Assembly (NCBI GenBank): GCA_964481195.1
Contig: CAYZTB010000005.1
Span: 10,138-74,137 of the forward strand
DNA length: 64,000 bases
Source of the DNA: an uncultured Bacteroidia bacterium
GTDB lineage: Bacteria > Bacteroidota > Bacteroidia > Palsa-948
Direction: 5' to 3'
Part shown: piece after piece, positions 11,819 to 58,532 of the stretch
How the letters are laid out: every line of letters starts with the position of its first letter
How positions within the stretch are numbered: the first letter of the stretch is position 1
The notes under the pieces: generated by a model
What the model was told of the DNA's origin: nothing
Databases searched by the model: none
Seen by the model: only the letters and a program-made list of their open reading frames with translations
Program-made: the position numbers and the translations under genes

Positions 11819-11892
11819 TCGGGTAGACAAGATTTGAACTTGCGACCTCTCCCACCCCAAGGGAGTGCGCTACCGGGCTGCGCCACTACCCG
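11819..11892 (-). tRNA. tRNA-Pro (anticodon GGG), 74 nt, CCA not encoded
   Basis: A manual cloverleaf fits. Acceptor CGGGTAG/CTACCCG, D-stem GCGC/GCGC, anticodon stem CTCCC/GGGAG with loop TTGGGGT (GGG plus G37), T-stem GCAAG/CTTGT with loop TTCAAAT, discriminator A. Confidence 0.8.
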
Positions 11893-42498: not shown

Positions 42499-45400
42499 CT
42501 ACCTAACTACATTTACATTTCCAACATAAATAAACTGTTGGCTAAACACATCTACTAAGCTTACTTTCCAAACATATACGTCTTCTTGCATTAAAATTCC
42601 ACTTTGTCCATTCATATCAGACCCACCAGGTTTAACTATGCCATCCCATTGACAATAAGAAGATAAACCATCTTGACCAGGGCTGTCCCAATCTGTATTT
42701 TTTCCTGTATGATGACAATCCCAAATCATATTTCCCCATCTATCAAATATCCAAATATCGTATTCTTTTATTCCTCTACCCTTTCCAAAGAACATATCAT
42801 TAGTTCCGTCTTTATTGGGTGTAAAGGTGTTAGGTATATAAAAAGTAACTTCTGGCAAGATCTCAATTACTTTAGAAATTGTATCCCAGCAACCATAAAT
42901 GTTTTGAACAGTTAATGTAACCGTATAAGAGTAAAAATTATTCGTAGTGGTGGTTGCTGAATAACTATGAATTGGATCCGTATGCGTACTGTCTAATGAT
43001 GATCCATCGCCAAAATTCCACATCCAATTTGTAACATTGGTTGACCATAAATCACAAAAATTAAATGTTGGGTCTGTGATACTTGCAAAATTTGGAGTCA
43101 CACAAAATTGAGCATCGGGCCAGTCATAAATAGTAATGTATAGTGGAGCAGATATTGAATCTACACAACCATAAGTAGAAGTAACAATTAATGAGGCGTT
43201 GTAACTTCCTGGCTTGCTCCAACAAATTGTAGGATTTTGAGAAGTAGAAAAACTTGGATTACCTCCCGGGAATGACCATTGCCAGCTTGTTATAGTACCG
43301 TCAACTGACGTAGACAAATCAGAAAAAGTTGCGCAGGATGGAGCACATCCTTTTACTGAATCAGAAAATAATGCAATGGGTGACTGGTATATTGTAATTG
43401 CACTTGTTGTAGTATCCTTACAGCCGTTTATGGTTGTTACAATAAGTGTGACCGTATAGGCGCCAGAAGATACATACGTATGAGTTGGATGTTGATTTAT
43501 ATCGTTGGGTGAGCCATCGCCAAAATTCCAATTCCAAGCATTGATAGCATTTCCTGCTTGCGTTGTAGAAGCATCAGTAAAATTAGTTGGCGCATTCAAA
43601 CATCCGCTTTGAGAAACAATTGCAGCAGCAGGAATTGGATATACCTGAATAGGAATAGAAGTAACATTTTGACAACCACTATCAGATGTAACTGTTAAAA
43701 TCACAGAAAAAGTTCCTGATAAACTAAATGCATGACATGGGCTTTGCAATGCAGAAGTATTTGCAATTCCGGTGCTAGGATCACCAAAATTCCAACTCCA
43801 AGAAATAATATTGCCTGGATTTACTGTTGAATTATCTGTAAAACATGTCTGCGATCCAAAACAAACTGACGTAGAAGTAAACAATGCAGTGGGCAAAGGA
43901 TTTACAATTGCAAGAAGTTGAATGGAATCCGAACATCCTTCAGCATTGGACACTGTAAGACTTACAGAAAAAGTACCCGGATTATTATATGTATGTGTTG
44001 GATTTTGTATTGAAGAAGTGTTTCCATCGCCAAAATTCCAGCTCCACTGGATTGGAGCACCTGTTGATAAATCCATAAATACAGTAGGATTATTGAAACA
44101 AACAATGGATGAAGAAAAATTAGCAACCGGACTTGGATTTACTGTAACAGTTTGGCTTATAGTATCTGCACATCCGGTGATTGTTGTTACTATTAAAGTA
44201 ACAGAGTAAGTTCCAGGTGAAGCAAAAATATGAGATGGATTCTGTAGCGTATCGAGCGCACTTCCATCGCCAAAATTCCAGCTCCAAGTAGCAATTGGGT
44301 CGCCTATTTGAGCAACAGTTGAATCAATAAAAAAAGTTGTAGCTCCTATACATACTGGGCCAGATCCAAATGCAGCTGCAGGTGTCAATCCTCCAACACC
44401 TCCAGTAACAGCAACTGTTGCTGTATAAGCAACATTGCAACTAGTTGATGCTGTCACAGTATAATTCCCTGGACATAAACCTGTAATCGTTTGAGTGGTT
44501 TGCCCACCAGGAGACCACATTAACAAATAGTTAACCTGATTACAACAAGCTATAATATTCGCAGTAGCAGTACCATTGCAAGTACCACCACAACCCGTAT
44601 TAGAAGGAGTTGAAGTAACAGTAAAATTTTGAACAACAGTAATTGGAGGTATATCAATTTCAGTTACAAAAGCAGTTCCACATGCATACAATTTATTATT
44701 GGGGCCAAGCTTAACATCTGCACAAGTGTTTGAAAGTGAATAGCTAGCTAACGCCACAAGTGAAGAATCATAAACCTGAACATTACTCCCTATACCAACA
44801 TACACTTTGTCGCATTTATCCACGGATAAACCACCTGAGGAAAACATAATACCTCCCGTATTTACTTGGCTTTTAAATGCTCCGGTATTTTTATTCCATT
44901 TCTTAAGTACGTTACCGTCATAGCTATATAAATTACAATAGCTGCAAGTCATTCCGTTGTACCCATTAGCACGATTTGCAACTCCTCCTACATATGTTAC
45001 GCTGTTCCACTCATAAAAAGAATATCCTGTAGGAACTAAAAAAGTATACGGAGCAAGTGCAGGTATAGGAACTTTAAACATTTCATTACTAAACTGTAAG
45101 CCATGAACCAAGCTACGAGCAGTTGACATGTATGCAAAAGTTCCTAATGGATCGATTGTCAATAATACAATATCATGATAACCAATATTTGTTGTAGCAA
45201 TTGAATTAACTGGAGAAATACTTAATAAATTTGTATCAAGCATACAAGTTTGATTGGAAGTATTTGTTCCTCCTCCCCCAATAACAATTTTATTTGTGCA
45301 ACTATTGTATTCAGCACGCCACATTTCTACAAAAGTAGTTGAACCAGGAAATATTGCAGTTTGTATACCGAGTGTATTCACTTTTAATGCTCTAGATCCA

Positions 45401-46407
45401 ACACCGGCATTGTACCCTTCAACTAAATAACTTGTACCTGTATTTTCATCCACTGTAAAATCTCCATATTGCAGTGGACCTAAACCTGCTGCATTAAACA
45501 CCCATAATAGCGCACCTGCAGGACTAAATTTTGCAAGCTTAAAGGGCGTGTGTGATCCATAAGCGTAAACATTTCCATTCTTATCAAAGTTTACATCATA
45601 AGCAACATTGTATCCAGCAAAAGTTGGGTTTGTAACCCAAGGGTCAATTACTATTGTCTTCTTGTTGTTATAACTATCAACATAAAAAAATAATTCATTT
45701 CCTTTTAGAATATAATTTGACTTTAGAATGGTTTTTTCATTTTCATATGTTGTAATTGGTGCATGATCAACAAAATCGCCAAATAAACTTTTTGAAATAA
45801 TGTCGCCATTTGAATTCAAAACCATTCCTGTGGTATTGGGTAATTGTAATCTAACTTTTGATATATCCGCTCCCGGCCTTACAATTATATTATACTTTAT
45901 GCCCTCCTTATTTTTTGGAAAAAAATATTCTACGTCAATGTTTTTGTAAATATTTTTGTAAATTATTTTACTATAGCCTTTAGCTTTTATTGGATTTCCT
46001 AACGAATCAGCATAGGAATAATAATGCGAAACCTCTTCTTCTGCAATAATGTTTACAGCTGGATTTGCGCCTATCCAATGAGCGCTGTAAAAAAATACTT
46101 CAGAATTAGTTTCAGCCTGCTCATTCTCTTCTTGGTTATCTTCCTTTTTTCTTACAGAGGCTTTATCATATCTGTATGTAATTTCTTCTCTGGTAAAAAA
46201 CACTTCAACGCCCGAACTATTAGTAGAAAATAATATTTGCGAAGAGCCTGTATTGCTTTTTCCATCAAACTGTCCTTTATTTTCTATAAATACCTTATGC
46301 CCAAAAGGATTAGTAGCATCCCATCGTTCCTGACTAATGCCCACCAAAGAAAGTAGGAAGCTTCCAATAAATAAAAAAGACTTGCCATGGAGGTTAATTA
46401 CTCTCAT
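42499..46407 (-). CDS. Large secreted adhesin (paralogue B): signal peptide, beta-propeller-like head of about 600 aa, an SprB-like repeat, five PKD domains, and a T9SS type-B CTD
   Basis: The PKD pattern WSWNFGDG... appears five times. The C-terminus YIPNTFTPNKDGTNDMFFGKGRGIKEYDIWIFDRWGN is a type-B CTD. The last 450 aa are about 75% identical to paralogue C. Confidence 0.8.
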   Translation of the reverse strand: MRVINLHGKSFLFIGSFLLSLVGISQERWDATNPFGHKVFIENKGQFDGKSNTGSSQILFSTNSSGVEVFFTREEITYRYDKASVRKKEDNQEENEQAETNSEVFFYSAHWIGANPAVNIIAEEEVSHYYSYADSLGNPIKAKGYSKIIYKNIYKNIDVEYFFPKNKEGIKYNIIVRPGADISKVRLQLPNTTGMVLNSNGDIISKSLFGDFVDHAPITTYENEKTILKSNYILKGNELFFYVDSYNNKKTIVIDPWVTNPTFAGYNVAYDVNFDKNGNVYAYGSHTPFKLAKFSPAGALLWVFNAAGLGPLQYGDFTVDENTGTSYLVEGYNAGVGSRALKVNTLGIQTAIFPGSTTFVEMWRAEYNSCTNKIVIGGGGTNTSNQTCMLDTNLLSISPVNSIATTNIGYHDIVLLTIDPLGTFAYMSTARSLVHGLQFSNEMFKVPIPALAPYTFLVPTGYSFYEWNSVTYVGGVANRANGYNGMTCSYCNLYSYDGNVLKKWNKNTGAFKSQVNTGGIMFSSGGLSVDKCDKVYVGIGSNVQVYDSSLVALASYSLSNTCADVKLGPNNKLYACGTAFVTEIDIPPITVVQNFTVTSTPSNTGCGGTCNGTATANIIACCNQVNYLLMWSPGGQTTQTITGLCPGNYTVTASTSCNVAYTATVAVTGGVGGLTPAAAFGSGPVCIGATTFFIDSTVAQIGDPIATWSWNFGDGSALDTLQNPSHIFASPGTYSVTLIVTTITGCADTISQTVTVNPSPVANFSSSIVCFNNPTVFMDLSTGAPIQWSWNFGDGNTSSIQNPTHTYNNPGTFSVSLTVSNAEGCSDSIQLLAIVNPLPTALFTSTSVCFGSQTCFTDNSTVNPGNIISWSWNFGDPSTGIANTSALQSPCHAFSLSGTFSVILTVTSDSGCQNVTSIPIQVYPIPAAAIVSQSGCLNAPTNFTDASTTQAGNAINAWNWNFGDGSPNDINQHPTHTYVSSGAYTVTLIVTTINGCKDTTTSAITIYQSPIALFSDSVKGCAPSCATFSDLSTSVDGTITSWQWSFPGGNPSFSTSQNPTICWSKPGSYNASLIVTSTYGCVDSISAPLYITIYDWPDAQFCVTPNFASITDPTFNFCDLWSTNVTNWMWNFGDGSSLDSTHTDPIHSYSATTTTNNFYSYTVTLTVQNIYGCWDTISKVIEILPEVTFYIPNTFTPNKDGTNDMFFGKGRGIKEYDIWIFDRWGNMIWDCHHTGKNTDWDSPGQDGLSSYCQWDGIVKPGGSDMNGQSGILMQEDVYVWKVSLVDVFSQQFIYVGNVNVVR

Positions 46408-46455: not shown

Positions 46456-49400
46456 TTACCTTACCACATTAACATGTCCGATGTATGCATGTCGTTTATT
46501 AAACACATCTATTAATCTTACTTTCCAAACATATACGTCTTCCTGCATTAGTTGGCCGCTTTGTCCGCTCATGTCCATGCCGCCTCCTACTACTTTGCCA
46601 TCCCATTTACAAAATGAACTTAATCCATCTTGTCCGGGGCTGTCAAAATCTGTATTCTTTCCTGTATGTTCACAGTTCCAAAGTAAATTGCCCCAACGAT
46701 CGAATACCCATATTTCATATTCTTTAATACCTCGACCTTTACCAAAAAACAATTCATTCATACCATCTTGGTTGGGAGTAAATGTATTGGGAATGTAAAA
46801 TGTAAACTCTGGTAAAATCTCTATTGTCTTGCTTATGGTATCCCAACATCCATAAATATTTTGTACTGCCAATGAAATAGTAAAATAATAAAAATCATTA
46901 TTTAGTACAGAAAGAGAATAAGAGTGTGCTGGGTCTGTATTGATGCTATCTTTTGGAGAGCCATCACCAAAATCCCACATCCAACTTGTTACACTATTTG
47001 ACCAAAGATCGCAGAAAACAAAATTAGGATCTGTAATTGAAGCAACAGTAGGAGCTACACAGAAATTTGCAACCGGCCAATCATATACCGTTATATAAAG
47101 TGGGGTAGCTACGGAATCTACACATCCGTAGCTTGAAGTAACAATTAAGGAAGCACCATATACTCCGGGTTTGTTCCAACAAACTTTTGGATTTTGTAAT
47201 CCTGAAATTGCTGGGTTTCCTCCAGGGAATGACCATTGCCAAGACGCGATGGTTCCATCTATCGAAGTAGATAAATCATTAAAGGTTGCACAAACAGGAG
47301 CGCATCCTTTTACTGAATCCGAATAAAGTGCAATGGGTGGATTGTATATTACTGCTGTGCTTGTGGTTGTGTCTTTACAGCCCTGTACGGTAGTTACAAT
47401 TAAGGTAATGGTATAAGTTCCTAGCGTTGAGTATGTATGAGATGGATTTTGATTTACATCATTGGGTGATCCATCGCCAAAATTCCAGCTCCAAGCATTT
47501 ATTGGACTGCCTGCAGGAGAAGTAGATGCATCAGTAAATGGTGTTAAAGCATTTAAACAAACATTCTTTGGTGTGATAGCAGCTGTTGGCAATGGATATA
47601 CATTGGCAGGCAACATCGTTGTGCTTTGACATCCGCTATCGGTAGTGGCTGTTAAAATTACGGTGAATGTGCCAGGGCCCGAAAATGTATGACATGGGTT
47701 TTGTGCTGTAGATATATTTGCTGCACCGGATGTTGGATCTCCAAAATTCCAACTCCAACCTGTGATGGTGCCAGGTGTTACAGTGGAAGCATCCGTAAAG
47801 CAAGACTGATTGCCTACGCATACGGGCGTGGAGCTAAATAATGCTAAGGGTAAAGGATTAATTATAGCTAATAAATTTACAGTGTCAACACAACTCGAAG
47901 TGTTAGTAATAATTAAAGTTACCGAATAAGTTCCTGGTGCTCCGTAGGTATGTGATGGGTTTTGCGAAGTTGAAGTGCTGCCATCGCCAAAATTCCAATT
48001 CCATTGTGCAACAGTAGGATTCCCTACAGATTGATCAGTAAATAGAGTTGGGTTATTAAAACAAACAGGTGCAGTTATTGCAGCAGCAACGGGGTCAATT
48101 CCTGCTGACACTATAATTGGTATTATAACCGTATCAATACATCCTTGCTGGGATGTAACAATTAAAGAAACCGAATAAGTTCCTGGAGAATATATAATGC
48201 CAGATGGATTTTGCGATATTGAACTTGTTGGTGATCCTCCAGGGAAACTCCAATTCCATACTACAATTGGAGTACCATTGGGAGTGTAGCTTGAATCTGT
48301 AAATGATACAACTCCACTTCCACAAGTCCCTAAAGGTGTGTAATTAAAATTTGATGTTACTTGCATCGGGGTAGGAACATAAGTAATGTAAAACGGACAG
48401 CCAGATGGTTGTGAAACAAGTACAGCAAAAGTATCGCCTGGCTGAGGGAAAGGAATAATAGTTTGTGAGGTAGAATTTGGAGCACCAGTATATGGTTGTC
48501 CGTTATGAGACCACTGATATGTGTAATTAATTATCGGATCGGTAGGTGCAGTAATTGTTACAGAATTTCCTACACAGTATGATGCAGGATTTGTAGAAAG
48601 TGAACCACATGAGAAATCCCAATATGAATAGCAGTAGTGTCCGCCTAACGCACAATCTGAATTTGTAATTACAACAGTCAAATTTTGACCAACAAAAGCC
48701 GATAGATTTACCCCTTCCAAAGTCCACGGCTTATAAGAAACAATCATGCCAGCCGGAGGATATCCCGGATTTAGCGAACCAGCACAAGATGCTTGAAAAA
48801 AACCATTTCCTACTCCTCCATTTAAGTCCGCAATGTATTTTCTATGACTACAGGGAACAGTATCTCCATTGGCTTTTAAAATATAAATTTCTGAAAATGG
48901 CGCTTCTGCTGCCGTATGCCCACCAGGTGGATTCTCAAGCACTAAAGCATATGCATAAATAAAATTTGTATCCTGTGGTCCAACAGTTAGCGGGTATCGA
49001 AGTTGCTCCGAACATCCGTTTCCAGCTGCACCAACGCCCGGAGGTGGGTATGGCAAACTATTGGCACATCCCCCGTTTAAGCCACTTGTATTTGGTTGCC
49101 CTAATTGAATTGATGCATTTCCAAAACCAGGACAAACTAGAGGTATTGGTGGGCCTGTTGTTCCTTGAGTGCAAGGATCTACTCCGGCACCACTAGTAAG
49201 ATTAAACCGAGGTGTAACAGGTGCAACGGGTGCAAAAAATGTAGGATCAGGTGAGCCTCCTTTCTGGTGAAACCCTGTAGCTGCTGTGTAGCTACTCCAT
49301 CCATTTTCTCCGCCTAAATCACTACATGCTGCAAACGGACTTACAGGTATATTTTTTTTTACGATTGGATTTGTACCAGGAGCACTCTCACCATTTTGTA

Positions 49401-49518
49401 TTTGAATTTTATTAGAAGTAGCTTTGTTAGTAGATTGCGCAAATAAAGTTTGTGTACAAAAAAATGTTACACCAACAATAAAAACAAAGAAAATCCAGTT
49501 TCTGTAATACTTATTCAT
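46456..49518 (-). CDS. Large secreted adhesin (paralogue C): signal peptide, MAM-like head domain, PKD domains, and a T9SS type-B CTD
   Basis: The head contains CSDLGGENGWS...RFNLTSGAGVDPCT...PGFGNASIQLGQP...YKPWTLEGVNL...SYWDFSCG, shared with D and E. The C-terminal cassette is shared with B. Confidence 0.8.
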   Translation of the reverse strand: MNKYYRNWIFFVFIVGVTFFCTQTLFAQSTNKATSNKIQIQNGESAPGTNPIVKKNIPVSPFAACSDLGGENGWSSYTAATGFHQKGGSPDPTFFAPVAPVTPRFNLTSGAGVDPCTQGTTGPPIPLVCPGFGNASIQLGQPNTSGLNGGCANSLPYPPPGVGAAGNGCSEQLRYPLTVGPQDTNFIYAYALVLENPPGGHTAAEAPFSEIYILKANGDTVPCSHRKYIADLNGGVGNGFFQASCAGSLNPGYPPAGMIVSYKPWTLEGVNLSAFVGQNLTVVITNSDCALGGHYCYSYWDFSCGSLSTNPASYCVGNSVTITAPTDPIINYTYQWSHNGQPYTGAPNSTSQTIIPFPQPGDTFAVLVSQPSGCPFYITYVPTPMQVTSNFNYTPLGTCGSGVVSFTDSSYTPNGTPIVVWNWSFPGGSPTSSISQNPSGIIYSPGTYSVSLIVTSQQGCIDTVIIPIIVSAGIDPVAAAITAPVCFNNPTLFTDQSVGNPTVAQWNWNFGDGSTSTSQNPSHTYGAPGTYSVTLIITNTSSCVDTVNLLAIINPLPLALFSSTPVCVGNQSCFTDASTVTPGTITGWSWNFGDPTSGAANISTAQNPCHTFSGPGTFTVILTATTDSGCQSTTMLPANVYPLPTAAITPKNVCLNALTPFTDASTSPAGSPINAWSWNFGDGSPNDVNQNPSHTYSTLGTYTITLIVTTVQGCKDTTTSTAVIYNPPIALYSDSVKGCAPVCATFNDLSTSIDGTIASWQWSFPGGNPAISGLQNPKVCWNKPGVYGASLIVTSSYGCVDSVATPLYITVYDWPVANFCVAPTVASITDPNFVFCDLWSNSVTSWMWDFGDGSPKDSINTDPAHSYSLSVLNNDFYYFTISLAVQNIYGCWDTISKTIEILPEFTFYIPNTFTPNQDGMNELFFGKGRGIKEYEIWVFDRWGNLLWNCEHTGKNTDFDSPGQDGLSSFCKWDGKVVGGGMDMSGQSGQLMQEDVYVWKVRLIDVFNKRHAYIGHVNVVR

Positions 49519-49533
49519 TTTTTTGTATAAATT

Positions 49534-52155
49534 TTACCTTACCACATTAACATGCCCAATATACATGTGTTTTTTATCAAAAATATCAACTAATCTAACT
49601 TTCCAAACATAAACGTCTTCCTGTGCTAGTTGATTGCTACCTCCGCCCATATCAACACCACCTTTTACAACCTTGCCATCCCACTTACAAAACGAAGGCA
49701 ATCCTTCTTGTTTTGGATTAGTGGCATCGTTATCCCAGTTTGTGTTTTTATCTTCGTGATGACAATCCCAAATTTGATTTCCCCATCTATCGAACAACCA
49801 GATATTATATTCTTTAATGCCTCTTCCTTTACCATAAAATAACTCGTTTACAAAATCGCCATTAGGCGTGAATGTATTTGGAATATAAAATGTAAACTCA
49901 GGCATCAACTCTACTATTTTACAAATAGTATCCCAACATCCATACTGATCCTCTACCCTTAAGCACACGTTGAAAGCATAGAAGTCATTTTGCGTAGCTG
50001 TTGCTGAGTAACTATGAATTGGGTCTGTGTTTACATAGTCAGAATCATTATCTCCAAAATTCCAAGACCACGATATTACATTTGAAGTCCACAGGTCACA
50101 AAAATTAAATACCGGATTGGTTACAGGCTGCATAGTCGGAGTTACACAAAAATTTGCTTTAGGACCTGGTACTGTAGAAATCATAGGAAGAGTAAGCGTG
50201 TCCTTACAACCATAGTTAGTTGTAACCAATAAAGTTGCATTATAATTTCCTGGCGTGTAGTAACAAATATTAATAGGATTTTGAGCGGCAGAACCAGTAG
50301 GTGTGCCTCCAGGGAATGTCCATTGCCAATTAACAATATTGCCATCTACTGGCTGAGATAAATCTGTGTAATCATTACAAATTACACCGCAGCCACTATC
50401 AGGAGCAGAGAAATTAGCAAGAGGAGGATTGTAAACAACTACCTGTTGAACTACAGTATCTATACAACCATTTTTAGATGTTACCACTAAAGTAACCATA
50501 TGAGTACCAGCTGTTAAATAGCTGGTAGCTGTATTTTGAGAAGTAGCAGAAGTTGGAGTACCACCCGGCATTGACCAGTTCCAAGCTGTTATCGGATCTC
50601 CTTGCAATCCAACAGAACCATCTGTTAATGATGTAGCATTTCCTAAACATGGCGTTGATGGGGTAAGTGCTGCGGTAGGAAATCCTCCCGTTGTGACAGA
50701 ATGGGTAACATTAGCTGAACACCCATTCGATGCTGTGATAGTTAACGATGCAGTATAATTACCCGGAGGGTATGTTACATTAACAGTAGGCGTAGTTGCT
50801 GTTGCTGGTGAACCGCCAGGAAACGACCAACTATATCCGGTAATATTTGCAGATCCTTGAGGTGAAACAAAGCTGCTATCTTTAAAAATATAATTACCAC
50901 AAACACCCGTAAAATTAAAGTTAGGCAATGCTAGTCCTGGGGCATAAGTAAGATAAAAATTACAACCTGATGGTTGAATAACTTGAAGCTGAAACGTATC
51001 TCCTTGTACTGGGTTAACAACATAGGTTTGGTTAGTTTGACCCGGTACAACTACACCATTATGATACCATTGATAAGTAAATGGATTATTGGGGTCAGAG
51101 ATAGGGCCTGTCATTGTGGAAGTACCACCTATACAGCCTAGAGAAAGAGGTACAGGACCACACTTGAAATCCCAATAGGAGTGAGCATAATGACCACATT
51201 GTGCACAATCCACGTTTGTAATAATAATAGTTAAATTTTGTCCTACATATTGTTTAAGATTTACTCCAACTGTAGTCCAAGGTTTGTATGACGTACTAGT
51301 ACCTCCAAGACATCCTCCTGTTCCTGCAGCAGTAAAAAATCCTGGGAGTGGGCCAGAACCTCCAGGGGCTACATATTTTTGGTAAGAACAATCCACTGTG
51401 TCTCCATTTGGAGCAAGAATTAAAAATTCTGCAAATGGGCGCTGGGTTTGAGAATGCGAAGATCCTGGATCGAATAATACAACCGCATAAGCGTAAACAA
51501 AGTTTGTATCTTGTACAGTAGGAACAAAATTATAAGTCATTTGTTCTACCCAACATCCAGTTTTTTGAGGACATCCAAGTTGCAACGATGCGTTACCAAA
51601 ACCAGGAGCAACTAATGGAATTGTTGGACCAGGGCCACCTCCAATAGGATTAGTTCCGGGAGTACAAGGATCTATTCCAGTACCTGAAGTCATTGTAAAA
51701 CAAGTAGTAGTAGAGTTTGTATTTACAGGAGGGGATACAGAAGCACTCATGGTAGGAATACCTGTAGTACCATTTGTAGTACCCGGTGCACCTGCCCACG
51801 TACTCCATCCGTTTTCAAATCCAACATCACCGCAAGCCATTACAGATGGAGGGTTGCCGGACTTATCTTTTAGCACACTTAGATCTTCTTTGTGTACATT
51901 TTTAAAGTCTTTAAAAAATTGCTTTCTATTGGCTATTAACTTATCAATAACTACAGATGGAACTCCATCTTTTTTCATAACCTCTCTCTCTTTTGCTTCA
52001 TTAAAATATTGGGGAGAAATTCTGTAGTCCCCTAAAAGCTTAGGCTCATTTGATGGATTTGTCTGAGCGTTTGTTGTAGTCGAAATTAACATCGCTACGG
52101 TAAATGCTCCAACAATAATTGAAGCAAACGATAATTTGTTTTTTAATGTATTCAT
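49534..52155 (-). CDS. Large secreted adhesin (paralogue D): signal peptide, MAM-like head, PKD domains, and a T9SS type-B CTD
   Basis: It has the same head-domain motifs as C and E (MACGDVGFENGWSTW; RFN-like; SYWDFKCG). The CTD is YIPNTFTPNGDFVNELFYGKGRGIKEYNIWLFDRWGNQIW. An 11-nt gap to the upstream gene indicates an operon. Confidence 0.8.
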   Translation of the reverse strand: MNTLKNKLSFASIIVGAFTVAMLISTTTNAQTNPSNEPKLLGDYRISPQYFNEAKEREVMKKDGVPSVVIDKLIANRKQFFKDFKNVHKEDLSVLKDKSGNPPSVMACGDVGFENGWSTWAGAPGTTNGTTGIPTMSASVSPPVNTNSTTTCFTMTSGTGIDPCTPGTNPIGGGPGPTIPLVAPGFGNASLQLGCPQKTGCWVEQMTYNFVPTVQDTNFVYAYAVVLFDPGSSHSQTQRPFAEFLILAPNGDTVDCSYQKYVAPGGSGPLPGFFTAAGTGGCLGGTSTSYKPWTTVGVNLKQYVGQNLTIIITNVDCAQCGHYAHSYWDFKCGPVPLSLGCIGGTSTMTGPISDPNNPFTYQWYHNGVVVPGQTNQTYVVNPVQGDTFQLQVIQPSGCNFYLTYAPGLALPNFNFTGVCGNYIFKDSSFVSPQGSANITGYSWSFPGGSPATATTPTVNVTYPPGNYTASLTITASNGCSANVTHSVTTGGFPTAALTPSTPCLGNATSLTDGSVGLQGDPITAWNWSMPGGTPTSATSQNTATSYLTAGTHMVTLVVTSKNGCIDTVVQQVVVYNPPLANFSAPDSGCGVICNDYTDLSQPVDGNIVNWQWTFPGGTPTGSAAQNPINICYYTPGNYNATLLVTTNYGCKDTLTLPMISTVPGPKANFCVTPTMQPVTNPVFNFCDLWTSNVISWSWNFGDNDSDYVNTDPIHSYSATATQNDFYAFNVCLRVEDQYGCWDTICKIVELMPEFTFYIPNTFTPNGDFVNELFYGKGRGIKEYNIWLFDRWGNQIWDCHHEDKNTNWDNDATNPKQEGLPSFCKWDGKVVKGGVDMGGGSNQLAQEDVYVWKVRLVDIFDKKHMYIGHVNVVR

Positions 52156-52166: not shown

Positions 52167-53432
52167 TTAATCTGTAATTGTAATTAAGCCTTGTTGGTAA
52201 ATATCTCTTCCATTTTTGTTTTTTACTACTGCTTTCCATAAATAAGTTTCTCCTTTTCTTGTGTTATTTCCTTCCCATACTAGATTTTTATCTGATGTTT
52301 TATATACGATGTTCCCTTGTGCATCTGAGATAGTAATTGTAAATTCATAATCTCCCGACTGAAGAGTAATAGGCATCCAAGTATCATTAATCCCGTTTCC
52401 ATCTGGGCTAAATGCATTAGGGGCTAACAAGTCTAATTCGTTTTTCAGATTCACTTCTTTTACTACAACACCCACACATCCAATTTGATTTTTTACATAT
52501 AAAGTAACTTTGTACGATCCATACTTTTTATACGAGTGACTAGGGCTTGGCATGAAAGAAGTTTGCTTATCTCCAAAATCCCATTTCCAATCTGCAGCAT
52601 CGCTATAGTCAGAATCAAAATTAACCAGTAACTCATTTTCTGCCGAAACCAATGTGTTTATTCTTGGATCTGGAGCAGCAGAAACAATAATATTGTTTTT
52701 CTCCTCTGCTTTTTTTCTGTCTACTTCCGAAATGATTTGAAGTTTTACTGTAAAGGAACCTGCCTCTTTATAGATATGTTTGGGGCTTGCTTCTGTAGAT
52801 GATTGACCATCGCCAAAATACCATTTGTAGGAGCAAACAGCCTCATTTTTTGCAGGCAAAAACTGCACTTCTTCTCCTTCGCAAATTGCACGCTTGCTTG
52901 TTTGGAAAGAAGCCGATAAGACAACCGGAATAGTTTCTTGTTTCTGCGCAGTGGTTGTTTGAGTAGGAACAGTAGGAGTGTTTTTGTTATCTGAAACTAA
53001 AACTTCATTTTTCTTTTGATTATTTTCTACTTCAGGAGATTTTCCCAAAACCACATTATTGTTTTCTACTTTTCTAGTCTCCTCTTTATTAGAATTCACT
53101 GCAGCATGCTGATTGTTTAAATTTATTTTTCTATTAGAAGGATCAGCATTTTGAATTTGTGTGTTTTCTTCAGAAACAACTGGCATACTTGTTTTCTCAA
53201 CAACATCTTTTGGTGCATTAACCGAATTGCTTTCAGTACTAAAGTAATAGAATAGCCCAGATGCTAAAATAACTGAGGCAGCAATTAAAATATTTCTTGT
53301 AATTTTTGATGTAGGATTACTAACCGCAGCAGTGTCAAGTTTACGTTCTAGCGCTTTCCAATCCGCTGCATTATAATCCACCTCGAAGTTTTCAAGCGAC
53401 TCTTTAATGTGTTTATCTAACTGGCCTTTCAT
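52167..53432 (-). CDS. Signal-anchored (N-in, single TM) protein with a low-complexity linker, two PKD domains and a T9SS type-B CTD; candidate anti-sigma factor or sensor for the adjacent ECF sigma
   Basis: A 44-aa hydrophilic N-terminus precedes one TM helix (ILIAASVILASGLFYYF). The PKD patterns are KWYFGDGQSS...HIY and WKWDFGDKQTS...HSY. The CTD is LLAPNAFSPDGNGINDTWMPI. A 1-nt gap to the sigma stop codon indicates translational coupling. The anti-sigma role is inferred from position and topology only. Confidence 0.45.
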   Translation of the reverse strand: MKGQLDKHIKESLENFEVDYNAADWKALERKLDTAAVSNPTSKITRNILIAASVILASGLFYYFSTESNSVNAPKDVVEKTSMPVVSEENTQIQNADPSNRKINLNNQHAAVNSNKEETRKVENNNVVLGKSPEVENNQKKNEVLVSDNKNTPTVPTQTTTAQKQETIPVVLSASFQTSKRAICEGEEVQFLPAKNEAVCSYKWYFGDGQSSTEASPKHIYKEAGSFTVKLQIISEVDRKKAEEKNNIIVSAAPDPRINTLVSAENELLVNFDSDYSDAADWKWDFGDKQTSFMPSPSHSYKKYGSYKVTLYVKNQIGCVGVVVKEVNLKNELDLLAPNAFSPDGNGINDTWMPITLQSGDYEFTITISDAQGNIVYKTSDKNLVWEGNNTRKGETYLWKAVVKNKNGRDIYQQGLITITD

Positions 53433-53433: not shown

Positions 53434-54015
53434 TTATTTTTGATGTGCTGTTACTATCTTTTCGAGATCTTTTTTTAAGTGTGCTTTTGCTTTAGACAAA
53501 TTAGATTTTGAAGTGCCTATATTAATTCCTAACTGATCTGCAATTTCCTGATGCGAAAAACCGTCAACAACAAATAAGTTGAAAACTGTTCGGTAGGCCT
53601 CTGGTAATTGTTGAACTGCTTGCATGATTTCTTTAGTGCTTAACTGTAAATATTCGCTTTCGTCTGTTGTTTCGTCTGCTTTATCTTCTATAAAATCCGA
53701 ACTTGTATGATTAATAAATTGCTTATTCTTTCTTATATAATCTAGTGCTGTATTAACAATAATTTTTCTTACCCAACCTTCAAATGATCCTTTTCCTTGA
53801 TATGATTTAATACTTGTGAATACTTTTAAAAACCCATCTTGTAATATATCTTTTGCTTCTTCATTATTAGCTGAGTATCTCAAACAAGCTCCCATCATTT
53901 TGCCATACAATTTCTGATATACTAATTGCTGGTATTTTCTTTCCCCTTTAATACAACCTTCAATTATGTCAAAAAACGGATCTTTTTTATCTTCACTCAT
54001 CACATCTGTACTCAT
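53434..54015 (-). CDS. ECF (sigma-70 family group IV) RNA polymerase sigma factor; the true start is probably the second ATG at 54000
   Basis: Region 2 is DILQDGFLKVF...W..I..N...D. Region 4 is AYRTVFNLFVVDGFSHQEIADQLGINIGTSKSNLSKA. The promoter motif overlaps the first ATG. Confidence 0.85.
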   Translation of the reverse strand: MSTDVMSEDKKDPFFDIIEGCIKGERKYQQLVYQKLYGKMMGACLRYSANNEEAKDILQDGFLKVFTSIKSYQGKGSFEGWVRKIIVNTALDYIRKNKQFINHTSSDFIEDKADETTDESEYLQLSTKEIMQAVQQLPEAYRTVFNLFVVDGFSHQEIADQLGINIGTSKSNLSKAKAHLKKDLEKIVTAHQK

Positions 54016-54045
54016 AAGACGTTAATATTACAAAAGGTTGCCTTA
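54016..54045 (-). promoter_or_regulatory. ECF-type promoter on the minus strand: TAAGGCAACC-N15-CGTCTT followed by a conserved AGTACA box; a candidate autoregulatory promoter of the sigma operon
   Basis: The minus-strand reading is ATAAGGCAACCTTTTGTAATATTAACGTCTTATGAGTACAGAT. The identical architecture recurs at 56790-56820. GGAAC/CGTC-like spacing is typical of ECF sigma promoters. Confidence 0.5.
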
Positions 54046-54131
54046 TTACCTATCCAAAATCAATGATTATTACAAAAAAAGACGAAAATTCATAAATACT
54101 TGAAAATAAATTAAATAAAACACAATACTTC

Positions 54132-54167
54132 AAAAAAAAACCCGTAAGAGAACTTACGGGTTTTTTT
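54132..54167. terminator. Bidirectional rho-independent terminator separating paralogue E from the sigma operon
   Basis: A9 run, then CCCGTAAG-AGAA-CTTACGGG, then T7 run (54141-54160 stem-loop). Confidence 0.75.
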
Positions 54168-54183: not shown

Positions 54184-56745
54184 TTACTTTACAATGTTAA
54201 CGTGACCTATATAAAGGTGTTTTTTATCAAATATATCAGTCAGTCTAACTTTCCATACATAAACATCCTCTTGAGCAAGTTGGTTGCTACCACCTCCCAT
54301 ATCTACTCCTCCTTTTACAACTTTTCCGTCCCATTTGCAATAGGATGAAAGTCCATCTTGTTTAGGATTTGTAGCATCATTATCCCAATTGGTATTTTTA
54401 TCTTCTACATGACAATCCCAAATTTGATTTCCCCATCTGTCAAAAAGCCAGATGTTATATTCTTTCACACCACGACTTTTCCCAAAAAACATTTCATTAA
54501 TAAAATCGCCATTAGGAGTAAATGTGTTAGGTATATAGAATGTAAACTCAGGAATAAGCTCCACAATTTTACAGGTTGTATCCCAACATCCGTATTGATT
54601 CTGAACATTAATACAAATTTTATAAGAATAAAAATCATTTGATGTTGCAGTTGCAGAATACGAATGTGAAGGATCTGTATTAATGATATCAGTCGTGTTA
54701 TCGCCAAAATCCCAAGTCCACTGAACTACATCCGTTGACCAAAGGTCACAAAAATAAAATACTGGGTTAGTAGTTGGCGCTATAGTTGGAGTAACACAAA
54801 AATCTGCATTAGGCCATGGGTATACTTCAACCATTGGAAGCTGAATGGAAGCCTTACAGCCAAAGTTTGTAGTCACACTAAGTGAAACGCTATAGGATCC
54901 AGGAGTATAATAACAAATATTAGTTGGGTTTTGAGATGAAGATGAAGATGGTGTTCCTCCAGGAAAAGACCAAGACCAAGAATTTACTGTTCCATCAACA
55001 GCTTGTGATAAATCAGTATAGTTAGCGCACACTGGAGAACAGCCACTATCTGGCGCAGAAAAATTAGCAATAGGAAGATTGTAAACCAATACCTGCTGAA
55101 TAATCGTATCAATACATCCAGCGACAGAAGTAACAATCAAAGAGACGGTATGCGTTCCCGCTATATTGTAAGTTGTTGAGGTATTTTGACTGGTAGCTGA
55201 AGCAGGATTTCCGCCAGGCATATTCCAATTCCAAGATGCAATGGGATCCCCTTGAACAGCCACAGATCCATCTGTTAATGTAGTAGCAACTCCTAAACAA
55301 GGAATAGTAGGAACAACTGCAGCTGTTGGAAACCCACCTACAGTAAGTGGTTGAGAAATAGTTGCCGTACATCCTTCAGATGAAGTAACTGTAATAGATG
55401 CTGTATAATTTCCAGGCGGGTATGTCACATTGGCTGTTTGGGTATTTGCCGTTGATGGACTGCCACCCGGAAAGCTCCAATTCCAATTAGTTATAGTTGA
55501 AGAAGTTGATGGAGTAACAATGCTATTATCTACAAACACATAGTTGCCGCAATTGCCTGTGTAAGTAAAGTTGGGTTGTACAACCGCAGGTGCATATTTC
55601 AAAAAGAAATTACAACCTGATGGCTGGATTACTTGAACAGCAAAAGTATCATTGGGAGTTGGTGTAACTAATAATGTTTGATTTGTTGCACCTGGCATTA
55701 AGGTGCCATTTTGATACCATTGATAATTATAGGGTACAGTAGAAGTCGAAGCTGGTCCAACAATAGAAGATTGGTTTCCAACACAACCCGCTGCTAAAGG
55801 CACTGGGCCACATTGCACATCCCAATAAGAGTGCGCATAGTGTCCACAGAATACACAATCATGATTATCAATTACACAAGTCAATTGCTGTCCTACATAT
55901 GCAGATAGATTTACGCCAACAATTGTCCAAGGCTTGTAAAAAGTACTATTTCCACCTAGGCATCCTGCAGCTGCTGTATACCATCCCGGTAAATTTGGGT
56001 CACTAATATAACGCTGAAAAGAGCAAGGAACTGTATCTCCATTTTGGTCTAATATTTTAAACTCTACATAAGGCTTTTCATTAAATGCATGTCCACTGGA
56101 AGGATCATAAAGTACAGCTGCAAATGCATAAACTAAATTTGTATCCTGTGCAGTTGGAGTGAAGGGAAACGTAAGTTGTTCTGTCATGCAACCAGTAGTT
56201 TGTGGTTGACCTAATTGAATAGAAGAGTTTCCAAACCCTGGAGCAACAACAGGTATTGTTGGAGCTCCTGCTGCAGCTCCTGGCGTACACGGATCTATTC
56301 CCGCTCCTGTTGTTATATTAAATCGAGGTGCTGGTGGATTAGGTACTGCTGGTTGTAATGTGCCGGGATTTCCTCCACTGTTCGAACCTATTGCTCCTAC
56401 CCATTGACTCCAACCATTTTCTACGCCTAAATCAGTACATGCTAAAGGAACAGGATTAGGATCTTTCTTTTTTGAGAATTGGGTAGAAGAAACAATTGAC
56501 TTATACTTTTGAAGATATAATTTTCTATCTGCTAATACTCTATCAATTTCCGGATCTGATAATCCGTCTTTTTTCATCATTTTTCTAAGCTCTTCATCGC
56601 TGGTACCAGTAACTATTGTTGCCTTTTCAGGAGAGTTTTTGCTAATAGTTTGTTGAGCAAACAACTCATTAAAAAAAAATGGTGAACAAAAAAAAGCAGT
56701 GATAAAAAAAATTACAGATAATCTAGCTGTTGTTTGGTTTTTCAT
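54184..56745 (-). CDS. Large secreted adhesin (paralogue E): signal peptide, MAM-like head, PKD domains, and a T9SS type-B CTD; monocistronic
   Basis: LACTDLGVENGWSQW, RFNITTGAGIDPCT, SYWDVQCG. The CTD is YIPNTFTPNGDFINEMFFGKSRGVKEYNIWLFDRWGNQIW. The DNA is about 80% identical to D over the 3' 400 nt. Confidence 0.8.
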   Translation of the reverse strand: MKNQTTARLSVIFFITAFFCSPFFFNELFAQQTISKNSPEKATIVTGTSDEELRKMMKKDGLSDPEIDRVLADRKLYLQKYKSIVSSTQFSKKKDPNPVPLACTDLGVENGWSQWVGAIGSNSGGNPGTLQPAVPNPPAPRFNITTGAGIDPCTPGAAAGAPTIPVVAPGFGNSSIQLGQPQTTGCMTEQLTFPFTPTAQDTNLVYAFAAVLYDPSSGHAFNEKPYVEFKILDQNGDTVPCSFQRYISDPNLPGWYTAAAGCLGGNSTFYKPWTIVGVNLSAYVGQQLTCVIDNHDCVFCGHYAHSYWDVQCGPVPLAAGCVGNQSSIVGPASTSTVPYNYQWYQNGTLMPGATNQTLLVTPTPNDTFAVQVIQPSGCNFFLKYAPAVVQPNFTYTGNCGNYVFVDNSIVTPSTSSTITNWNWSFPGGSPSTANTQTANVTYPPGNYTASITVTSSEGCTATISQPLTVGGFPTAAVVPTIPCLGVATTLTDGSVAVQGDPIASWNWNMPGGNPASATSQNTSTTYNIAGTHTVSLIVTSVAGCIDTIIQQVLVYNLPIANFSAPDSGCSPVCANYTDLSQAVDGTVNSWSWSFPGGTPSSSSSQNPTNICYYTPGSYSVSLSVTTNFGCKASIQLPMVEVYPWPNADFCVTPTIAPTTNPVFYFCDLWSTDVVQWTWDFGDNTTDIINTDPSHSYSATATSNDFYSYKICINVQNQYGCWDTTCKIVELIPEFTFYIPNTFTPNGDFINEMFFGKSRGVKEYNIWLFDRWGNQIWDCHVEDKNTNWDNDATNPKQDGLSSYCKWDGKVVKGGVDMGGGSNQLAQEDVYVWKVRLTDIFDKKHLYIGHVNIVK

Positions 56746-56789: not shown

Positions 56790-56820
56790 AAGACGTAGTT
56801 ATTGCAAAAGGGTTGCCTTA
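56790..56820 (-). promoter_or_regulatory. Second copy of the ECF-type promoter (TTAAGGCAACCC-N16-CGTCTTTAAAGTACAAAT on the minus strand), 45 nt upstream of the paralogue E start codon
   Basis: Read directly from the sequence. It is near-identical to the motif at 54016-54045, including the downstream AGTACA.AT box. Confidence 0.5.
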
Positions 56821-56912: not shown

Positions 56913-58532
56913 TTAATTTTTAACCATTTTAGATGTAACAACTCCATTCTTAAATTTAAATTGAAGAAAATAAACTCCAGCAGGCTGTTTTGTTAAATTT
57001 AATTCTGATATTTCATTTTGAGAAGAGACTTGCTGCACCTTTCTTCCAAAAACATCAAATACTTCTACAGAAAATATTTTCTCATTTTGGGAATTTAACA
57101 GCACTTTTCCAGAAGACGGATTAGGTGTGATTTGTACAAAATTCATGTTACTATAATCTTCATAAACACTTGTATTCCAGCAATTCCCAGGCATATTTGC
57201 ATCCATCCAAACAAGACGTTTACCAATCCAAGTTTTTAAATTATTTACTTCTGTTTGATAGTTAAGAGTTAAATTAAATTGTGAGTAATGCCTTGCGCTA
57301 GCTACAGAAACATAATTGGCAACGCTATCCATTATATGATAAATGTTTGCGTTACTCAATACTGTTGAGCGTAGCTGTGTCCACCTGCATTTCATATCGC
57401 GCGTATAAACCGTATCCTGCAATAATCGTTTCCACCAAAATGGGACTGGAAACGATGCATTTACCCAGCAAGTTAGAGGATAGGTCCATCCCGTATCTGT
57501 CGCAAAGGGTTCACAGCCACCAACTTTTACTTCCCAAGCTGAATTATAATCCCAGTGTGGGCTAGCCATCAATTTACCTCCTTTGTTGATTCTGTCTTTT
57601 GTTAAATATGAGCTACGTTTATACGCGTCAATATTTTTACTCATCTCCTGAATAAAAAAGAAATCCATAAAGGTTGTAGACTCCATGTATTTTCTGTAAC
57701 CGTTTATTGGATCGGCAAAATTTGTACTTGACAACGCATTCTCAAAGCTATCTACATATGCTTGAATATATTTTTTTTGCTGCAAAGTAATATCAGCCCC
57801 TTTAGGATATTTATACGTTAGAAATAAATTTGCACTTTGAGGATGTGCTGAAAACCAACCACTATCCGATGCGTTTATATTTTGATCTACAGCAATAATA
57901 TAACCTCCTGTGAGTGAATCTCCGGCATTGTCATCGAAATCCAATTTTGAAATATCCACACGGTTTTTGTCTTTTTTAATTTTTTCCATCATTACATACA
58001 CCCCATTATATTTCCAAGTGAATCCTGTTTTAAGCATTACTTCACAATATTTAGTTCTGGAAACCCAATATCCTAACTCACGAACTAATTGATAGGTAAG
58101 AACATTTTTCATCAAGGTCGATTCGTTAAAAGGACCGTAAAGAATCCAATCATTTTCTTTAGGCATACCTAAAATGCTAACGTTGGTATCAATGTTTAAT
58201 GGATTTCTAGTTTCAAAACCATAACTTTTCTGTGTCCACCACCATTGCTGCGATATGGAACCACGTTGCTCTATTCCAATTTTTCCGTTGTACTTATAAC
58301 TGACATCTGTAACATGATTCATCAGATTGTAACCTTTATCCAAGATTGCCATGTTAGCATCAATCTTTGGCTCATCTACAATTGCCTGAAAGTTTGTATT
58401 AATGAAAACTATTGGTAGCCTTGTTGAATCCAATGTGGCAAGTGGTAAATGTCCATCTCCCTGCTTTTGAATGCTTTGAGCATTGGAAAAAATTGTGCTT
58501 AAAAAGAAAAGACCAAGTAAATATTTCTTCAT
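56913..58532 (-). CDS. CotH kinase-family protein with a T9SS type-A C-terminal sorting domain
   Basis: Signal peptide. The CotH-like core is LTYQLVRELGYWVSRTKYCEVMLKTGFTWKYNGVYVMMEKI. The C-terminus ITPNPSSGKVLLNS...GVYFLQFKFKNGVVTSKMVK is a Por secretion tail. Confidence 0.5.
   Translation of the reverse strand: MKKYLLGLFFLSTIFSNAQSIQKQGDGHLPLATLDSTRLPIVFINTNFQAIVDEPKIDANMAILDKGYNLMNHVTDVSYKYNGKIGIEQRGSISQQWWWTQKSYGFETRNPLNIDTNVSILGMPKENDWILYGPFNESTLMKNVLTYQLVRELGYWVSRTKYCEVMLKTGFTWKYNGVYVMMEKIKKDKNRVDISKLDFDDNAGDSLTGGYIIAVDQNINASDSGWFSAHPQSANLFLTYKYPKGADITLQQKKYIQAYVDSFENALSSTNFADPINGYRKYMESTTFMDFFFIQEMSKNIDAYKRSSYLTKDRINKGGKLMASPHWDYNSAWEVKVGGCEPFATDTGWTYPLTCWVNASFPVPFWWKRLLQDTVYTRDMKCRWTQLRSTVLSNANIYHIMDSVANYVSVASARHYSQFNLTLNYQTEVNNLKTWIGKRLVWMDANMPGNCWNTSVYEDYSNMNFVQITPNPSSGKVLLNSQNEKIFSVEVFDVFGRKVQQVSSQNEISELNLTKQPAGVYFLQFKFKNGVVTSKMVKN

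Follow-up and report, generated by a model that had tools for sequence, protein, structure and literature searches.

Dma proteins (dual membrane-spanning anti-sigma proteins) of Bacteroidota were described in 2024 (PMC10927553). Dma1 of B. thetaiotaomicron, which is annotated as OMP_b-brl_2, starts with an N-terminal region and a transmembrane (TM) helix, continues with a long disordered stretch and ends in a barrel of eight strands, and its gene adjoins that of Das1, an extracytoplasmic function (ECF) sigma factor of group ECF21 (PMC10927553). The fusion Dma1(1:40)-GST pulls down Das1, membranes contain full-length Dma1 with N- and C-terminal tags, outer-membrane vesicles (OMVs) contain the barrel end, and C-terminal fragments appear in a growth-phase-dependent manner, suggesting proteolysis (PMC10927553). 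Reo/EcfO of B. fragilis is the pair orthologous to Dma1/Das1, and the Dma authors proposed that the sigma factor is released proteolytically; the T9SS (type IX secretion system) is not mentioned in these papers (PMC10927553, PMC13088901). Here we analysed a 64-kb stretch of DNA (64,000 nucleotides, hereafter the window) from contig CAYZTB010000005.1 of an uncultured Bacteroidia bacterium, and in it a gene for a 421-residue protein that is preceded by an ECF sigma factor gene. We read this protein as the cognate, inner-membrane-anchored anti-sigma factor of the sigma factor encoded 1 nt upstream, built on the Dma plan and with its distal end coupled to the T9SS or the outer membrane, and we give this reading a probability of about 0.6. 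It is best read as a Dma-like anti-sigma factor in which a T9SS type-B CTD (C-terminal domain) replaces the barrel.

The protein shares with Dma1 the position of its gene directly after that of an ECF sigma factor, a cytoplasmic N-terminus predicted to be about 40 residues long, a single TM helix, a disordered tether and a C-terminal module of an outer-membrane type. An earlier note on this DNA, made from the letters alone, had treated the joining of an inner-membrane anchor to a T9SS domain as a topological paradox. The combination is real and is conserved in the family, but it is the defining trait of the described Dma class, and the novelty lies in the type-B CTD that stands in the barrel's place. 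Type-B CTDs are uncleaved and bind cognate PorP/SprF outer-membrane barrels, usually encoded just downstream, as in the cargo/shuttle pairs SprB-SprF of F. johnsoniae and PG1035-PorP of P. gingivalis (PMC9143113, PMC12618676); orphan type-B CTDs with a distant shuttle are also known (PMC12618676). In our searches of the literature we came upon no description of an anti-sigma factor that carries CHU_C, a type-B CTD or a PorP/SprF domain, nor of a PorP/SprF protein with a cytoplasmic sigma-binding extension. The large subfamily whose members bear a type-B CTD or a PorP/SprF barrel in place of the Dma barrel appears to be undescribed. What is reported below on the architecture of domains, the order of genes, the distribution of the family, the conservation of the promoter and the permutation of domains was observed or computed directly.

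Domain architecture of the 421-residue protein

The open reading frame of the 421-residue protein (Table 1) is real rather than a chance occurrence, as its whole architecture is common to 24 full-length homologue clusters at 37-48% identity, all of them from uncultured Bacteroidota. Pfam and AlphaFold2 confirmed the order of parts that had been read from the sequence earlier, namely an N-terminal region, a predicted TM helix, a linker, two PKD domains and a CTD that appears to be of type B. The AlphaFold2 model, which was built with 26 homologues, placed helices at residues 2-14 and 22-34 (pLDDT 55-59) and a third helix at residues 45-63, left residues 64-169 disordered with pLDDT mostly below 35, and gave confident beta domains (beta-sandwich) at residues 176-251, 258-329 and 337-419. 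Hydropathy was 1.79 across residues 48-66, and this hydrophobic stretch of at least 19 residues has the length of a TM anchor. The linker, which had been put at roughly 170 residues, is actually about 108 residues long (residues 65-172), with 84% of its residues being S, T, N, P, Q, E, K, V or D and 7% being hydrophobic. The Pfam scan of the protein found two PKD domains and CHU_C and no beta-barrel (OMP_b-brl_2). When the PDB was searched with the model by Foldseek, all that came back were generic PKD/Ig/FN3 arrays (e.g. Aureispira GhpA), which were uninformative for the CTD and the N-terminus.

The C-terminal end matched Pfam CHU_C (PF13585) at residues 337-419 with 34.8 bits against a cut-off of 27, covering profile positions 3-86 of 86, and it aligned with the CTDs of the neighbouring adhesins through the motifs PNaFSPNGDG.ND and Y.W. 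The earlier view that it is of the same class as those adhesin CTDs stands as far as the type-B family is concerned, but the identity is just 27-31%, and the compact CTD of the 421-residue protein lacks an extra insertion of about 30 residues with two conserved Cys (..FCKWDGKV..GG.DM.G.S.QL.QEDVYVWKV..) that the adhesin CTDs have. This insertion may mark a different shuttle specificity. Judging from the several type-A and type-B CTD proteins encoded in the window, the organism clearly uses a T9SS, and the 421-residue protein appears to lack the cleavable Sec signal peptide expected of T9SS cargo.

The sigma factor pairing and the N-terminal module

A single base separates the TAA stop codon of the sigma factor gene from the ATG of the 421-residue gene. 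Because the conserved promoter described below overlaps the first ATG of the sigma factor gene, its true start is probably codon 6, near position 54000. The proposal that the 421-residue gene is an ECF sigma partner gene was borne out, in that a sigma factor gene lay upstream in all contexts inspected, directly so in 10. Among 79 genomic loci with related PKD-CTD proteins, the module N-terminus was present in three (L001, L002 and L022; labels in L denote loci of relatives and labels in P denote matches to the module profile), and exactly those three had a sigma factor gene directly upstream. The other 76 loci encoded larger PKD-CTD proteins with no adjoining sigma factor gene, and those with a complete 5' end started with a short signal-peptide-like N-terminus. 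An ECF sigma factor gene was also found upstream in 8/8 further family members inspected, immediately so in seven and with one small gene between in L084. The sigma factor gene overlapped its partner or ended 1-9 nt upstream of it in the window, L001, L002, L022, L080-L083, L086, L167/L168 and the P0106 contig. Sigma factors with CTD-, barrel- or PorP-type partners were 39-78% identical to each other and to the window sigma factor, and the window sigma factor was 41-51% identical to one that is paired with an OMP_b-brl_2-type partner.

The pairing was also sampled from the sigma side, by scanning metagenomes with a sigma factor alignment and collecting the genes directly downstream. Nearly all of these start with one to three copies of 'fE..p....W..l...L' followed by a hydrophobic helix. 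Pfam assigned CHU_C to 12/50 and OMP_b-brl_2 to 5/50 of the complete genes, and a family-specific CTD model placed 22/50 in the CTD class. When the window-type module was compared by hhalign with divergent N-termini of independently collected partners of this sigma family, barrel-type partners included, the two aligned with a homology probability of 97.5% (E=7e-12).

Outside the PKD domains and the CTD, the best-conserved part of the alignment of the 24 homologue clusters was the N-terminal motif hIK.sLE.fE.eYNPADW..m..rL, in which L13, E17 and W25 were invariant. The earlier note had suggested that the N-terminal 44 residues may be a new anti-sigma module, and had proposed a profile search with them. 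We ran an exhaustive profile search with the first 67 residues as query (E<=1e-3, clusters at 50% identity), which matched 820 protein clusters. The N-terminus is thus not unique to this protein; it is absent from Pfam and NCBIfam, yet it is shared with a large Bacteroidota family that includes proteins of Dma architecture. In the profile matches, a module of about 35 residues occurs one to seven times in tandem, always ahead of a single hydrophobic helix and a low-complexity linker, so that up to seven modules (about 280 residues) precede the helix in relatives. Among 93 matches scanned with Pfam, the C-terminal ends were OMP_b-brl_2 in 34, PKD with CHU_C in 28-32 and PorP_SprF in three. The mean number of K+R was 3.3 in the 15 residues before the helix and 1.4 after it, and was higher before the helix in 92/114 family members, which places the modules in the cytoplasm. 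A conserved repeat region of up to about 280 residues, moreover, cannot be the n-region of a signal peptide. The earlier statement that this N-terminus is not an ordinary signal peptide is thus supported.

No anti-sigma model of Pfam or NCBIfam recognised the module. Searches of Pfam and NCBIfam at E<=10 with the N-terminal 80 and 191 residues gave sub-threshold noise only, in which DUF3379 reached E=0.066 and an anti-sigma model of Leptospira E=0.06, and NCBIfam searches with eight diverse family members found no model of the module, the 'anti-sigma factor' model NF052375 matching weakly at 23.6 and 16.4 bits against a cut-off of 100. In agreement with the earlier note, which had recognised neither a zinc-binding anti-sigma domain (ASD) nor FecR, residues 1-44 contain no Cys, the Pfam and NCBIfam scans gave no significant match to an anti-sigma family, including the zinc-binding class I ASD (ZAS, zf-HC2, HxxxCxxC) and RskA-like families, and no FecR-family match was found in the 421-residue protein even at E<=10. 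Word-indexed homologue searches, with the N-terminus alone or with a 68-sequence alignment of module and TM helix, gave no matches. Searched against PDB sequences, the module profile matched only de novo designed TIM barrels (7osv, 6z2i), which share a 'Y..DDW..L...L' helix-cap motif, and the module appears to have no relative of solved structure. An extracellular location of the module, as might be drawn from the Firmicutes matches P0045/P0058/P0060 ('dYt.aSW..l..aL' repeats in very large surface proteins), was considered and rejected, because the match consists of a short loop-helix motif only, the architecture is different and the Bacteroidota proteins obey the positive-inside rule. The pattern 'Y..(D/S)W..l...L' in Firmicutes-like surface proteins and in designed TIM barrels seems to have arisen by convergence on a helix-capping motif and not by common descent.

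Several further observations concern the wider family. The module is repeated two to seven times in many relatives (P0038, P0046-P0049, P0130 and others), and the repeats might serve to hold several sigma factors per molecule, to raise avidity or to fulfil a different function. A further class of sigma partners, of 230-350 residues, has two or three 'yE..PP..vW..i...L' modules, a TM helix and a conserved '..NFMDIL..v..L' end without a Pfam match (L096-L098, L105, L111, L115, L117, L126, L129, L135, L140, L160 and L161), and its only match was a weak one to NF052375 (23.6 bits). Partners of a fourth class, about 250 residues long (L123, L124, L136 and L149), end in 'IGPFKIGKR'. The small gene between sigma factor and partner in L084 (L084:9450-9998) encodes a 182-residue DUF4382 protein and overlaps the end of the sigma factor gene by 4 nt; this locus is otherwise syntenic with the window (topA, arginase-family gene, sigma factor, partner, adhesins). 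A divergent malate/lactate dehydrogenase gene, the sigma factor gene and a gene for a multi-module PKD-CTD partner stand in the same order on three different contigs (L081, L082/L083 and L086) that are probably from Flavobacteriales, which suggests that this locus is old and vertically inherited and could exist in cultured flavobacteria.

Outer-membrane ends, promoter and proposed mechanism

The link to the outer membrane takes several forms among the relatives. The window protein has the order module-TM-linker-PKD2-CTD, and a PorP/SprF gene is absent from the 64 kb. In L022, the sigma factor gene is followed by a gene for a module-TM-linker-PKD-CTD protein and then by a separate PorP/SprF gene. 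In L167/L168 and on the P0106 contig, three or four modules (four in L167), the TM helix and the linker are fused to a PorP/SprF barrel; the fusion gene is followed by a separate gene for a 211-residue lipoprotein-like type-B CTD protein in L167/L168, and by a 148-aa gene with no Pfam record on the P0106 contig. The L167 sigma factor is 50% identical to that of the window and has the same promoter. These fusions are a 'split and swapped' version of the window protein, and the pattern of permutations argues most strongly for a functional CTD in the window protein and for a PorP/SprF-type barrel as the partner of this CTD. In that case, the CTD together with such a barrel would be the non-covalent equivalent of the Dma barrel. 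The permutations with PorP/SprF also lend indirect support to the earlier suggestion that the protein might report secretion load of the T9SS. A separate observation is that L088:4579-6602 holds a sigma factor gene, a gene for a 322-residue module-TM protein without a Pfam domain, and a PorP/SprF gene apparently split over two frames (5635-6393 and 6357-6602), which may reflect a frameshift or an assembly error.

A pattern search of the window found an ECF-type promoter upstream of the sigma factor gene and a second copy ahead of the gene for the 853-residue adhesin. The motif had three matches in the window, compared with 0.56 expected by chance. GGCAACC-N14-16-CGTC was found 25-45 nt upstream of the sigma factor genes in the window, L001, L002, L080-L082, L084, L086 and L167, and it was present in 18/75 metagenomic sigma relatives, mostly those with CTD-type partners, compared with one match in control segments of the same length taken inside downstream genes. 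L084 also has a second promoter copy ahead of an adhesin gene, and in L081 the sigma-partner pair precedes a gene for a 4634-residue SprB-like protein. Because the promoter stands ahead of both the sigma factor gene and the 853-residue adhesin gene, the sigma factor is probably autoregulated and probably drives the four type-B adhesin genes of the window. A generic sigma-70 promoter scan of the window was uninformative (45 sites vs 54.5 expected). The terminator that separates the 853-residue adhesin gene from the sigma factor operon was established by folding, a terminator scan having missed it.

Table 1. Coordinates of the sigma factor operon, its regulatory elements and related features (window positions unless a locus label is given)
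Feature	Coordinates	Strand	Basis or remark
Candidate anti-sigma gene, 421 aa	52167..53432	-	ATG start; open reading frame list, Pfam, homologue alignment, AlphaFold2
N-terminal helix-loop-helix module, aa 1-36, motif hIK.sLE.fE.dYNpADW..l..kL, predicted cytoplasmic and sigma-binding	53325..53432	-	Conservation, profile, hhalign, AlphaFold2
Single hydrophobic helix, aa 45-66, predicted signal anchor with N-terminus inside	53235..53300	-	Hydropathy, K+R bias, AlphaFold2
Low-complexity disordered linker, aa 67-172	52917..53234	-	pLDDT 27-40, composition, poor alignment conservation
Two PKD domains, aa 173-331	52440..52916	-	Pfam PKD_4, 98 bits, two stretches; AlphaFold2 pLDDT 82-96
Type-B T9SS CTD, aa 337-421	52170..52424	-	CHU_C (above cut-off), TIGR04131 (below cut-off), motifs shared with adhesin CTDs
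ECF sigma factor gene	53434..54015	-	Sigma70_r2, Sigma70_r4_2; TIGR02937, 100 bits
ECF-type promoter GCAACC-N14-CGTC upstream of the sigma factor gene	54018..54041	-	Window pattern search
Second ECF-type promoter copy, GCAACCCTTTTGCAATAACTACGTC, 46 nt upstream of the 853-aa adhesin gene	56792..56816	-	Pattern search
Adhesin, 873 aa, PKD repeats and type-B CTD, same operon	49534..52155	-	Pfam; 11-nt gap
Adhesin, 1020 aa, PKD repeats and type-B CTD, same operon	46456..49518	-	Pfam; 15-nt gap
Adhesin, 1302 aa, DUF7948, PKD repeats and type-B CTD, last of the run	42499..46407	-	48-nt gap
Adhesin, 853 aa, PKD repeats and type-B CTD, separate transcription unit, probable regulon member	54184..56745	-	Domains, promoter
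Intrinsic terminator separating the sigma factor operon from the 853-aa adhesin gene	54131..54167	-	Hairpin and U-run, -21.9 kcal/mol, z-score -7.9
Adhesin C-termini with the Cys insertion	42499-42870, 46456-46820, 49534-49900, 54184-54550		
Module-TM-linker-PorP/SprF fusion genes	L167:5421-8480; L168:1307-4366; also P0106 contig		

Elsewhere in the window, the third match to the promoter motif (GCAAC-N17-CGTC, 43307-43332, minus strand) lies inside the gene for the 1302-residue adhesin and is probably due to chance, although it could act as a promoter within the gene. The gene at positions 56913-58532 (minus strand), just upstream of the adhesin cluster, encodes a protein of the CotH kinase family that ends in a type-A T9SS CTD (Por_Secre_tail), and this gene also stands ahead of the sigma factor gene in L001. 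The first 42 kb (window 1-42 kb) contain housekeeping genes (pheT, aspS, glmS, lpxK, typA and others) and genes for two more type-A CTD proteins. A single tRNA gene (11819-11892, minus strand) was the sole Rfam match in the window.

Drawing on the Dma system and on type-B cargo, we infer how the 421-residue protein might bind its sigma factor, how its CTD might reach the T9SS or a PorP-like partner and in which direction the signal might run; sigma binding and the crossing of both membranes are carried over from Dma1. In the proposed mechanism, the cytoplasmic helix-loop-helix of about 36 residues would hold the sigma factor at the inner membrane, one TM helix would anchor the protein with its N-terminus inside, the disordered linker of about 108 residues would span the periplasm, and the two PKD domains and type-B CTD would attach to the T9SS or to an outer-membrane shuttle of the PorP/SprF type. 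The sigma factor would recognise GCAACC-N14-16-CGTC ahead of its own operon (sigma factor, anti-sigma factor and three adhesins) and ahead of the fourth adhesin gene. The trigger would act at the CTD end, by docking, by a pull from the secretion motor or by competition with adhesin cargo; proteolysis of the tether and the TM segment would then free the sigma factor, and adhesin output would thereby be kept in step with the state of type-B secretion.

More tentatively, the protein might form a T9SS checkpoint, in which a PorP/SprF-type shuttle grabs the tethered CTD, proteolysis frees the sigma factor, and the type-B adhesin genes are turned on only if this branch of secretion works; we think this version possible, with the odds against it. 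As the anti-sigma factor cannot be released, pulling or docking would expose its tether and TM segment to proteolysis. A checkpoint of this kind might be seen as a membrane-bound counterpart of the flagellar FlgM/sigma-28 checkpoint, and one module would be linked to the outer membrane in interchangeable ways, by a barrel (Dma), by fusion to PorP or by a CTD.

Alternative readings and comparison with known systems

The reading of the 421-residue protein as the cognate anti-sigma factor on the Dma plan draws on its position as partner gene, the single sigma family, the diagnostic module, the sampling from the sigma side, the topology, the biochemistry of Dma1, the permutations, the regulon and the behaviour of type-B CTDs. 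The envelope-spanning signalling role that had been suggested earlier likewise remains the best reading, given the adjacency to the sigma factor gene, the positive-inside bias in 92/114 members and the tandem modules. A number of points weigh against this reading. Every characterised T9SS cargo has a cleavable Sec signal peptide (PMC12618676), it is hard to picture how a polypeptide tethered in the inner membrane passes through or leaves the SprA translocon, and the search of the 64-kb window found no PorP/SprF gene. The CTD scores 28.2 bits with NCBIfam TIGR04131 (T9SS type B sorting domain), under the 35-bit cut-off, and the AlphaFold2 confidence for the predicted N-terminal helices is just 55-59. 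The apparent homology to Dma1/Reo is drawn indirectly, through proteins that have this architecture and have the module and the sigma family in common. Lastly, most related loci have no type-B adhesin gene beside the sigma-partner pair, so that the adhesin regulon may be lineage-specific.

One alternative is a conventional, single-membrane anti-sigma factor, in which the N-terminus binds the sigma factor but the PKD-CTD part stays in the periplasm as a sensor or decoy and is never at the outer membrane; there it may compete with type-B cargo for T9SS components or chaperones, or bind unsecreted adhesins. The awkwardness of a tethered chain in the translocon, the window's lack of a PorP/SprF gene and the cleaved signal peptide that T9SS cargo normally has (PMC12618676) all favour it, as do the 421-residue protein's lack of a beta-barrel of its own and its linker of about 108 residues, which is shorter than in many barrel-type relatives of 560-720 residues. 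By our estimate the extended linker has a contour length of about 39 nm, and together with the two PKD domains it could cross the periplasm only if largely stretched, a feature that would suit a tension sensor and that also argues for a periplasmic CTD. We nevertheless consider this alternative unlikely, as every class of the family ends in a domain of an outer-membrane type (OMP_b-brl_2, PorP/SprF or type-B CTD), the permutations with a PorP/SprF barrel place the partner of the CTD at the outer membrane, and characterised type-B CTDs bind PorP-like barrels at the surface (PMC9143113).

The protein might instead be a pro-protein whose linker is cut soon after insertion, the PKD-CTD part becoming a small T9SS-secreted adhesin and the N-terminal stub being degraded, so that its link to the sigma factor would amount mainly to co-expression or to a one-shot release of the sigma factor rather than to continuous sensing. 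Dma1 is found mostly as C-terminal fragments and its full-length form is gone in stationary phase (PMC10927553), a disordered linker would be open to proteases, and the PKD-CTD end is like those of the neighbouring adhesins. Such processing would leave unexplained why module, TM helix and sigma factor adjacency are conserved over 820 clusters with three outer-membrane-type ends, and why the module is repeated up to seven times, and we think it quite improbable; if cleavage depended on secretion, it would merge with the Dma-like reading. A last alternative is a plain small adhesin that has an atypical, long but cleavable signal peptide as its N-terminus and whose adjacency to a sigma factor gene is incidental. 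Its PKD domains and type-B CTD are like those of its neighbours, and in some orthologues small residues follow the hydrophobic helix (..FSASG in L001), so that cleavage by signal peptidase is conceivable from the sequence. This we regard as very improbable: the hydrophilic 36-residue module is the most conserved part of the protein other than PKD and CTD, up to seven copies (about 280 residues) precede the helix in relatives, the hydrophobic stretch of at least 19 residues has the length of a TM anchor, and a sigma factor of one family always adjoins in the contexts inspected. Moreover, the 76 other related PKD-CTD proteins are built differently and have no adjoining sigma factor gene, and full-length Dma1 with an N-terminal tag stays in membranes (PMC10927553).

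The Dma-like reading bears on a subject, the regulation of the T9SS and of gliding and adhesion proteins, that is poorly understood beyond the PorXY-SigP system of Porphyromonas. Recognition of Dma-type anti-sigma factors dates only from 2024 and is limited to gut Bacteroides, where they end in a beta-barrel. We found the same anti-sigma module to be widespread (820 clusters at 50% identity), often in tandem, and joined to a type-B sorting domain or a PorP/SprF barrel in a large share of environmental Bacteroidota (12-22/50 partners of the closest sigma relatives). If the reading is true, the protein would be a direct and genetically tractable wire from the type-B branch of the T9SS to adhesin transcription, it would extend the Dma concept beyond barrels, and it would be the first protein to carry a T9SS tag but no cleavable signal peptide, a point of interest for the handling of substrates by the translocon. 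With the conserved promoter motif, the regulon can be predicted from sequence. An anti-sigma factor that bears an export tag of the adhesin type suggests that these Bacteroidota tie the expression of adhesin genes to the T9SS.

Among described systems that inform an ECF sigma factor of conditions at the surface, PorA-PorXY-SigP of Porphyromonas gingivalis (PMC7712824) is similar in that the condition of the surface or T9SS is passed on by a small protein with a T9SS CTD. PorA, however, is made with a normal signal peptide, lies free at the surface and signals by a two-component route rather than by sigma binding; it is confined to Porphyromonas, and we saw no sequence relationship between it and the 421-residue protein. 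With SprB-SprF and PG1035-PorP the window protein shares a C-terminal domain of the CHU_C/TIGR04131 type placed after Ig-like (PKD) domains, and among its relatives a PorP/SprF gene is the neighbour in L022 and a fusion partner in L167. It differs from these cargo proteins in being small and linked to a sigma factor, and in having a cytoplasmic module and a signal anchor in place of a cleavable Sec signal peptide. As no PorP/SprF gene adjoins it in the window, its type-B CTD would be an orphan.

In the flagellar sigma-28 checkpoint, FlgM is soluble and is fully exported by the type III system. The 421-residue protein would resemble FlgM as an anti-sigma factor that bears the export signal of the machine whose late substrates its sigma factor controls, but it is membrane-anchored and would require proteolysis, and the two are not homologous. 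In FecA-FecR-FecI, a system that the Dma paper takes up as well (PMC10927553), a signal from the outer membrane crosses the periplasm to a pair of anti-sigma factor and ECF sigma factor. The window protein, by contrast, has no FecR domain and no TonB-dependent transducer, and the functions of receptor and anti-sigma factor would be shared out between one polypeptide and a shuttle. Class II anti-sigma domains of the CnrY type have a very short, two-helix cytoplasmic sigma-binding region and no zinc motif. The N-terminal module is likewise short, without a zinc motif and, as modelled, formed of two helices; it differs in having no detectable sequence similarity to that class and in that modules of the window type can be tandem.

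The closest resemblance is to Dma itself, as the window protein and barrel-type proteins of Dma architecture have the same N-terminal module and are paired with one sigma family. It is not a strict Dma member, having two PKD domains and a type-B CTD and no OMP_b-brl_2 barrel, and its contact with the outer membrane would need the T9SS and a separate PorP/SprF-type barrel instead of BAM-type insertion. The regulon of the window sigma factor appears to consist of adhesins, whereas that of Dma concerns OMV biogenesis. The 421-residue protein nonetheless probably works like a Dma member.

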